3,673 nt of DNA, from NCBI RefSeq assembly GCF_003334765.1, contig NZ_QOWT01000069.1. One strand, 5' to 3'. The position numbers and the translations under genes are program-made. Below are positions 1,571 to 2,083 of this stretch, piece after piece. This DNA comes from Escherichia coli. GTDB taxonomy: Bacteria; Pseudomonadota; Gammaproteobacteria; Enterobacterales; Enterobacteriaceae. The notes under the pieces were generated by a model. That model did not search any database. It saw only the letters and a list, made by a program, of their open reading frames with translations, and had not been told where the DNA came from. Numbering within the stretch: position 1 is the first letter of the stretch; the number at the start of each line of letters is the position of its first letter.

Positions 1571-2083
1571 GTGCAAATAACCGAAGCGTTACTTTCAGAG
1601 CCGGGAGATATCTGGCGTTTTGTTCAGCAGGCGGTGGACCACTGGCCGCGTCTGCTGGCAGTCCACTTCACGCTCTATTCGGCAGAAGGAAACATCAACG
1701 GGCAACAGATTCATGCATTCTGTACTGCCTTTTACCGACAGGTGCAAGAACATATTACTGAGCGTAATCACACTGCCAGTCCAGCACCGCCGGTGGTATT
1801 ACGCTGGTTGCTGGAACAACATGGAGAAGCAACAATACGATGCCTGTTGCTGCTCAGCCAGGCGAGCATTTGCCATCTGCGGGTCAGTGCCACAGTTGAT
1901 GAAGAATGTTCGCAAGTGGTGGATTTACTGCAACAGACCTGGTCGGGGATAAACGCTGGCGGACAATGTCGGTTGGAAAGCTGTTTTCAGGTTGACCGTT
2001 CAGGTACATTAGATCAGTTCGTTGTGCTAAAGACAACTGTTCAGTCCCTTATGTTACCCGTTATGGCAACAATAGCCAGGTGA
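1571..2083 (+). CDS. Hypothetical protein (170 aa), family not recognised; candidate horizontally acquired orphan gene
   Basis: GTG start at 1571 is preceded by a strong Shine-Dalgarno, AAGGAG at 1556..1561 (9-nt spacer), with an in-frame TAG at 1562..1564 just upstream, so this is the first possible start. The ORF ends with a double stop, TGA TAA (2081..2086). Codon usage is atypical for the flanking genes (ATA three times, plus AGG, CGA, CGG, CTA, GGA). No transmembrane segment or catalytic motif is evident by eye. Six Cys residues, including C-x4-C (QCRLESC). Confidence 0.5.
   Translation: MQITEALLSEPGDIWRFVQQAVDHWPRLLAVHFTLYSAEGNINGQQIHAFCTAFYRQVQEHITERNHTASPAPPVVLRWLLEQHGEATIRCLLLLSQASICHLRVSATVDEECSQVVDLLQQTWSGINAGGQCRLESCFQVDRSGTLDQFVVLKTTVQSLMLPVMATIAR

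Follow-up and report, generated by a model that had tools for sequence, protein, structure and literature searches.

A widespread genomic-island gene family of Escherichia coli with distant kinship to the Rep-like proteins YagK and YfjJ, and a mosaic copy of it next to an IS66 relic

Introduction

A 3,673-nt stretch of the Escherichia coli chromosome (hereafter, the window) carries an apparently intact open reading frame (ORF) between two dead genes. What does this ORF encode, how did it come to lie there and does it still do anything? An earlier note on the sequence had called it an orphan without a recognizable family, had proposed recent horizontal acquisition alongside an IS66 element and had speculated about a toxin, an immunity protein or a phage-defence accessory.

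The apparent orphan is a catalogued E. coli island-backbone gene, so it should not be chased in the search for new toxins or defence genes. Only two insights are added here: a kinship of its family, without HUH residues, to YagK/YfjJ, and the mosaic origin of the copy in the window. The addition is modest. The UCP030791 family can be read as a HUH-less and Tyr-less offshoot of the YagK/YfjJ Rep-like proteins.

The open reading frame and its signals

The ORF comprises 170 codons on the plus strand (1571–2083) and starts with GTG at position 1571. It is preceded by the Shine-Dalgarno sequence AAGGAG (1556–1561, plus strand) with a 9-nt spacer, which is stronger than AAAAGGAA, the form found in most other copies. 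The stop codon TGA (2081–2083) is followed without a gap by TAA (2084–2086). All of these signals, as listed in the earlier note, were seen in the sequence. PGAP agreed: in the NCBI annotation of identical DNA, the same CDS is called (WP_001167450.1) and both neighbours are flagged as pseudogenes, which also bears out the position between a dead UxaA-type dehydratase gene and an IS66 relic.

The rare-codon-rich composition was confirmed as well. Rare codons made up 8.8% of the ORF compared to 1.1–2.8% in agaR, UxaA, acnB and the ECs1377 fragment; in the IS66 fragment, the value was 9.0%. The GC3 value was 0.49 for the ORF and 0.52–0.71 across agaR, UxaA, acnB and the IS66 fragment.

Frame and start position were the same in all 11 copies compared, and the start codon was GTG in eight of them, all from E. 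coli, and either TTG or ATG in the three distant ones. The dN/dS values among these copies ranged from 0.27 to 0.60 (median: 0.40), which shows a real but fast-evolving gene with dN/dS of about 0.4. The values of the window copy against the E. coli copies (0.42–0.60) were at the top of this range. The ORF of the window is a genuine E. coli protein-coding gene.

The C-x4-C pattern (C133, C138) was considered as a zinc site. It was kept in close E. coli homologues only and was missing in distant members, which rules it out. Moreover, a terminator-like hairpin with a T-rich run (GCCGGGAGATATCTGGC GTTTTGTT) lies within the ORF at 1600–1616 (approximately codons 10–19), and it also occurs in the O157 copy (locus L004, 9035–9051). 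It may be a mere by-product of the conserved EPGDI(W/R)RFV coding sequence.

Family identity and distribution

The protein is identical to RefSeq WP_001167450.1, which carries the name 'UCP030791 family putative phage-derived protein' in the newest PGAP annotation. A search of 5.8 billion proteins found 329 homologues with a conserved frame. Among the matches listed, all 120 homologues, with 64–100% identity, had a precomputed match to PF27752, which is labelled UCP030791 in the protein collection. The description as an orphan is therefore overturned, and so is the statement that no family could be assigned, as the match to a known family is clear.

The ORF had seemed unassignable because scans of the query itself came back empty. 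Pfam-A, in a version evidently older than PF27752, gave no match to the 170-aa protein even at E≤10, and the NCBIfam scan gave none. No defence family was found by PADLOC even at E≤1, and the best PHROGs match reached only E 0.13.

The family is widespread in E. coli. DNA related to the ORF was found in 3,233 of 5,426 complete genomes (about 60%), and in 2,118 of those it covered at least 80% of the ORF length. Such genomes had a median of two copies (a maximum of seven), nearly all of them chromosomal. The whole 3.7-kb window was present in 24 complete genomes, with 99.9–100% identity among the 20 matches listed. The family is nevertheless small, with 57 representatives at 50% clustering, and it is confined to Enterobacterales. 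Distant members occurred in Mangrovibacter, Salmonella, Serratia and Hafnia, where the NCBI names are 'inovirus-type Gp2' or 'YagK/YfjJ domain-containing'. All residues of the family core (A21, D23, H24, P26, F33, L35, F50, R78, W79, L93–94 and R104) were present in the window protein. Hence, the gene in the window belongs to a family that is already catalogued and widespread, and it is ordinary rather than new.

A subtype of 182 aa carried a 12-residue C-terminal extension (...HRPVQRCTLITAQ) and was seen at three loci (L005, 9001–9549; L015, 5026–5574; L018, 5026–5574). In two of the three, a convergent frameshifted pseudogene of the ProQ/FinO family lay downstream, in place of the ECs1377-family gene.

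A tblastn search of 50,697 phage genome records gave no match to the window protein, and only two loci of the family were found among 2.9 million viral contigs (IMG/VR). Plasmid matches comprised 13 records, several of which were chromosome-sized or mis-binned. Judged by these searches, the label 'phage-derived' has little direct support. The literature on UCP030791, PF27752, ECs1376/1377, DUF3296, YagK and YfjJ yielded annotation-level mentions only, and no functional study was found.

Island context

The UCP030791 gene is part of the backbone of P4-integrase/AlpA-type genomic islands. Its usual upstream neighbour was either an AlpA-like HTH gene or a gene of 152 aa in divergent orientation, and an ECs1377-family gene usually lay directly downstream. 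In O157:H7 and in a poultry strain, the order was the divergent 152-aa gene, UCP030791 and the ECs1377-family gene, followed in O157 only by a 77-aa gene. This four-gene O157 module reached a completeness of 80% or more in 779 genomes, and some part of it was present in 2,971. Other E. coli loci showed the order YfjI-like (DUF3987), YagK/YfjJ, a gene of ~190 aa, AlpA-like HTH gene, UCP030791 and ECs1377. In Mangrovibacter and in loci of the Hafnia/Serratia type, AlpA again preceded UCP030791, and both a canonical YagK/YfjJ gene and the gene of a phage-type integrase lay close by. The ECs1377-family protein has 207 aa (NCBIfam NF052300, 320 bits; PHROG 24243), and its intact form had a weak C-terminal winged-helix match (HTH_39, E 0.034).

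In the survey of homologue neighbourhoods, which the earlier note had named as a check, it was thus AlpA-like HTH, YagK/YfjJ and ECs1377 genes that were conserved beside UCP030791, rather than defence genes. In Pseudomonas islands with integrase and AlpA, 'inovirus Gp2-like' genes have been counted among the likely core genes, with no function given (bioRxiv 10.1101/2024.08.29.610337).

As to the origin of the ORF, the proposal of horizontal acquisition with IS66 held in one part only. The DNA is acquired, but the ORF was not carried in by IS66, because it belongs to the island backbone, which the IS66 fragment merely truncated. Genes of IS66-family TnpA, TnpB and TnpC were also seen 1–4 kb downstream of distant UCP030791 genes (L009, L010 and L011, of the Hafnia/Serratia type, 7452–12564). 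Their recurrence may be a coincidence, or it may reflect a preference of IS66 for that part of the backbone.

State and mosaic origin of the window copy

The island relic in the window is a backbone fragment of ~1.1 kb on the plus strand (1420–2493; borders approximate, from the CFT073/O157 island alignment and the PGAP pseudogene ends). It retains some of the upstream region, the intact UCP030791 gene and an ECs1377-family gene reduced to its 5' half. Homology to the islands of CFT073 and O157 starts near 1420 at the cut in UxaA and stops at ~2493 at the IS66 fragment. From the upstream intergenic region, ~150 bp are left of ~450 bp, and the divergent 152-aa gene is absent.

All of the immediate neighbours are damaged. 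The pseudogene of the UxaA-family hydrolase/dehydratase (254–1421, minus strand) has a frameshift, an internal stop and a missing N-terminus, and its cut 5' end adjoins the island relic. The ECs1377-family (NF052300) pseudogene (2172–2492, plus strand) has two lesions. An in-frame TAG at codon 27 (2250–2252) stands where intact copies have Trp, and the gene is truncated by IS66 after approximately codon 107. The IS66-family tnpC pseudogene fragment (2511–3097, plus strand) is frameshifted, lacks its N-terminus and marks the end of the relic. Outside of this block lie the end of agaR on one side and acnB on the other.

The acnB gene at the right edge (3335–3673, minus strand) is island-borne and adjoins the IS66 relic. 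It is followed by the citrate-lyase genes citG, citX, citF and citE (L002, 9335–15673), an arrangement that presumably differs from the acnB neighbourhood of K-12. In strain GmM066, acnB was cut by an IS110 fragment beside kps capsule genes.

A recombination breakpoint was located inside the ORF, near 1674 (1650–1700). The sequence to its left corresponds to the decayed allele of strain GPEC874 and the sequence to its right to the CFT073 copy: positions 1400–1650, including the first ~35 codons, were 98–100% identical to GPEC874, and positions 1700–1900 were 96–100% identical to CFT073. Positions 2000–2100 were like none of the sampled copies. The agaR-UxaA junction is common to the window and GPEC874 (L017, 4860–5620). 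Past ~1674, GPEC874 has what is left of a distant family member, broken by a frameshift and by many stops, and different genes follow downstream (a DeoR regulator, rbsK and fucP).

The window copy is hence a recombinant mosaic that is stranded in a ~1.1-kb relic with a dead partner gene. As the ORF is mosaic, it served as a recombination substrate linking two island segments. It seems that recombination uses paralogous genes of the island backbone as substrates and that island segments are spliced in this way. The locus illustrates how recombination between such genes joins island segments and is able to re-open a decayed frame.

We also compared the window protein to its relatives at conserved positions. 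It showed six departures from positions with at least 80% conservation, while the median among 107 close homologues was two and only 10% had six or more. Such a count points mildly to relaxed constraint.

Upstream region

A stem-loop (CCGGTGC...GCACCGG; 1491–1528, plus strand) lies 44–80 nt upstream of the start. It was kept in all eight copies compared (the window and loci L003, L004, L005, L015, L016, L018 and L019). Its RNA minimum free energy was −26.4 kcal/mol (z −3.98), and covariation comprised one pair only. The stem-loop could serve as an operator or as an ori-like hairpin; alternatively, it could form a structure in the 5'-UTR or terminate the upstream AlpA-like gene. No iteron-type direct repeats were detected in the upstream regions, and Rfam and tRNA scans of the window found nothing. 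A crude consensus search of 1380–1570 found no sigma-70-like promoter.

Relationship to YagK/YfjJ and the catalytic residues

Two alignments were used, one of 25 diverse UCP030791 members and a separate one of 21 YfjJ/YagK relatives. When the two profiles were compared with hhalign, they matched over 152 columns with a probability of 97.2% (E 4.2e-11). PF11726 (YagK_YfjJ_C) matched three of the 25 members at E≤0.001 (best 6e-10) and eight of the 25 at E≤0.1. For the window protein itself, PF11726 stayed below every Pfam threshold, with no match even at E≤10; its homology to YagK/YfjJ is therefore visible only at the profile-profile level. Pairwise BLASTP against YfjJ/YagK gave no significant full-length alignment and only a patch (DHWPRLLAV / NRYPRLIAV, E 0.007). 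Taken together, UCP030791 is distantly homologous to YagK/YfjJ, the 'inovirus Gp2-like' Rep proteins, a relationship that is well supported at the level of profiles.

The YfjJ relatives carry the domains PF11726 and PF23343 (REP_ORF2-G2P). Invariant among them were H109 and H111 (H-x-H) as well as Y187 and K190 (Y-x-x-K). H-x-H together with Y-x-x-K are the hallmarks of HUH rolling-circle initiators. Judging from their invariance and from the Rep-domain Pfam match, H109/H111 and Y187 are probably catalytic in YfjJ. The invariant motifs and the Rep ORF2/G2P match were seen in K-12 YfjJ (L007, 7548–8174), in K-12 YagK (L006, 4323–4949) and in 19 relatives, and YfjJ and YagK resemble intact HUH nucleases carried by cryptic P4-type elements.

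In the UCP030791 family, these residues are replaced. H109/H111 of YfjJ align to T88/R90 of the window protein, and Y187/K190 align to S159/L162. Across 145 family sequences and the window protein, position 88 was mostly Thr (82%), with no His in the list of residues, and position 90 was mostly Arg (90%). None of these 146 aligned sequences had two His within residues 86–92. The strand that is equivalent to the HUH strand (residues 88–96 of the window protein) reads TIRCLLLLS and contains no histidines. The alignments thus show a loss of the predicted catalytic residues in the family members analysed. One tyrosine is partly conserved: the equivalent of Y178 in YfjJ is Tyr in 84% of the family and Phe150 in the window copy. 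Some residual chemistry is formally conceivable in other family members that carry this Tyr.

Predicted structure

Structure prediction of the 170-aa protein, another check named earlier, gave a confident compact model. The AlphaFold2 model, based on the 25-member alignment, had a pLDDT of 90.1 and a pTM of 0.87. A model of YfjJ (pLDDT 80.4) had the same order of helices and strands. In this model, the HUH motif lies on the strand that matches residues 88–96, and Y187 ends the helix that matches residues 147–158.

A Foldseek search against viral models returned 12 matches at E≤0.001. The named matches among the top 50 were mostly parvovirus NS1, microvirus replication initiators and HHV-6 REP, along with two adenovirus proteins of unknown function. 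The PDB, likewise searched with Foldseek, gave nothing at E≤0.001, and the sequence search of solved structures with the UCP030791 or YfjJ/YagK profile gave noise only. The predicted fold of the window protein may be Rep-like, without the HUH and YxxK catalytic residues.

Proposed function and alternative explanations

A non-catalytic DNA-binding role suggests itself because the HUH histidines and the YxxK Tyr are replaced in every member examined. The protein would retain the DNA-recognition scaffold of a rolling-circle Rep/origin-binding domain, while the ability to nick would be gone. UCP030791 would then most likely recognise DNA by its sequence or structure and thereby help to regulate or maintain the island. 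A candidate target lies directly ahead of the gene in the form of the conserved hairpin, and the protein might act jointly with the downstream ECs1377-family protein, which has a weak winged-helix likeness at its C-terminus. We infer each of these steps: that the protein binds DNA, that the hairpin is its target and that ECs1377 is its partner. On balance, we favour this explanation with moderate confidence: the family would consist of Rep-derived, non-catalytic DNA binders of genomic islands, and the window copy would be a relic member. It offers a testable hypothesis, namely non-catalytic DNA binding in island control, also with regard to the uncharacterised K-12 genes yagK and yfjJ.

The window copy itself may be a survivor that is poorly expressed or has no function. 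It could be a leftover whose ORF was reopened by recent recombination onto a decayed resident allele and which is now unexpressed or unneeded. We consider this a serious prospect, somewhat short of an even chance. It is compatible with the family assignment and competes only with any activity of the window copy. Several observations point in this direction: the ECs1377 partner is dead, the 152-aa gene and most of the ~450-bp upstream region are gone, and no sigma-70-like promoter was found in 1380–1570. Moreover, GPEC874 has a frameshifted, stop-ridden allele at the same chromosomal junction, and the window copy stands out by its six departures and by dN/dS values at the top of the range. On the other hand, the ORF is intact and near-identical in the 24 genomes with the whole window, whose hosts are unrelated. 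The window copy also has a better Shine-Dalgarno sequence than other copies and keeps the conserved upstream hairpin, and the promoter scan was a crude one.

A more specific role is conceivable in a class of dead-Rep 'pseudo-nucleases'. Such a protein would bind an ori-like hairpin, for instance the stem-loop upstream of its own gene, or the origin of a rival element and thereby repress or exclude the replication of that element or control island excision. As a decoy, it might be directed at a filamentous phage, a P4-like satellite or a sister island with an active YagK/YfjJ-type Rep. We regard this as unlikely. If true, it would mean a decoy-type layer of control in ~60% of E. coli genomes.

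The speculation about a toxin, an immunity protein or a phage-defence accessory gained no support from the analysis. Small island genes of unknown function sometimes prove to be defence-related, islands with a UCP030791 gene often have defence genes in their cargo, and genes for BREX and type I restriction-modification were located a few kb away in some UCP030791 loci. However, PADLOC gave no match, and the protein has neither a nuclease or NTPase motif nor a transmembrane segment. No conserved small overlapping partner of the toxin-antitoxin kind was seen. Its place by the AlpA, YagK/YfjJ and ECs1377 genes is constant while the cargo varies, which is the position of a backbone gene rather than of cargo or a defence operon. 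A role of this kind has a slim chance at best.

An active rolling-circle Rep or HUH nuclease, by which the island would be replicated or mobilised after nicking at an origin, is very improbable. The homology to YagK/YfjJ Rep-like proteins, the possibly Rep-like fold and the conserved hairpin directly upstream of the gene are in line with it, and Rep origins of rolling-circle replicons often have such a hairpin. Nevertheless, T88 and R90 stand in place of the HUH histidines, and no two-His site exists in the 145 members or the window protein. The positions of Y187/K190 are S159/L162, and where the family has its only partly conserved Tyr, the window copy has Phe.

Finally, a chance ORF in decayed DNA, to which the pseudogene surroundings and the missing promoter signal might point, is refuted by the 329 same-frame homologues, the start position shared by 11 copies at the DNA level, dN/dS well below 1, the compact fold model (pLDDT 90) and the significant profile homology to a known family.

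Comparison with known systems

The closest comparison is with other UCP030791 members. They belong to the same length class as the window protein (~165–187 aa) and have the same island context, and their motifs AVDH(W/Y)PRL, PPxxLRWL and LLLL(S/N)Q are also found in the window protein. The window copy differs from them in that it is a recombinant mosaic, has six conserved positions substituted (Y150F among them) and has lost the usual neighbours.

YagK and YfjJ of the E. coli elements CP4-6 and CP4-57 resemble UCP030791 in the order of predicted structural elements and in their occurrence in islands with a P4-type integrase and AlpA, often together in one island. They are longer (~208 aa) and have H109-x-H111, Y187-x-x-K190 and a C-terminal tail with Cys/Ser, whereas UCP030791 proteins (~170 aa) have no H-x-H, no Y-x-x-K and no such tail.

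The HUH rolling-circle Reps served as a wider comparison group: the N-terminal domain of parvovirus NS1, the Rep proteins of microviruses and inoviruses, and SIRV1 ORF119, which we take to be a Rep although its PDB entry says hypothetical. Compared to these, the window protein lacks the HUH metal-binding motif, a Tyr at the homologous site and a helicase or other fused domain. Moreover, its gene is chromosomal and island-borne and does not reside on a phage or plasmid replicon.
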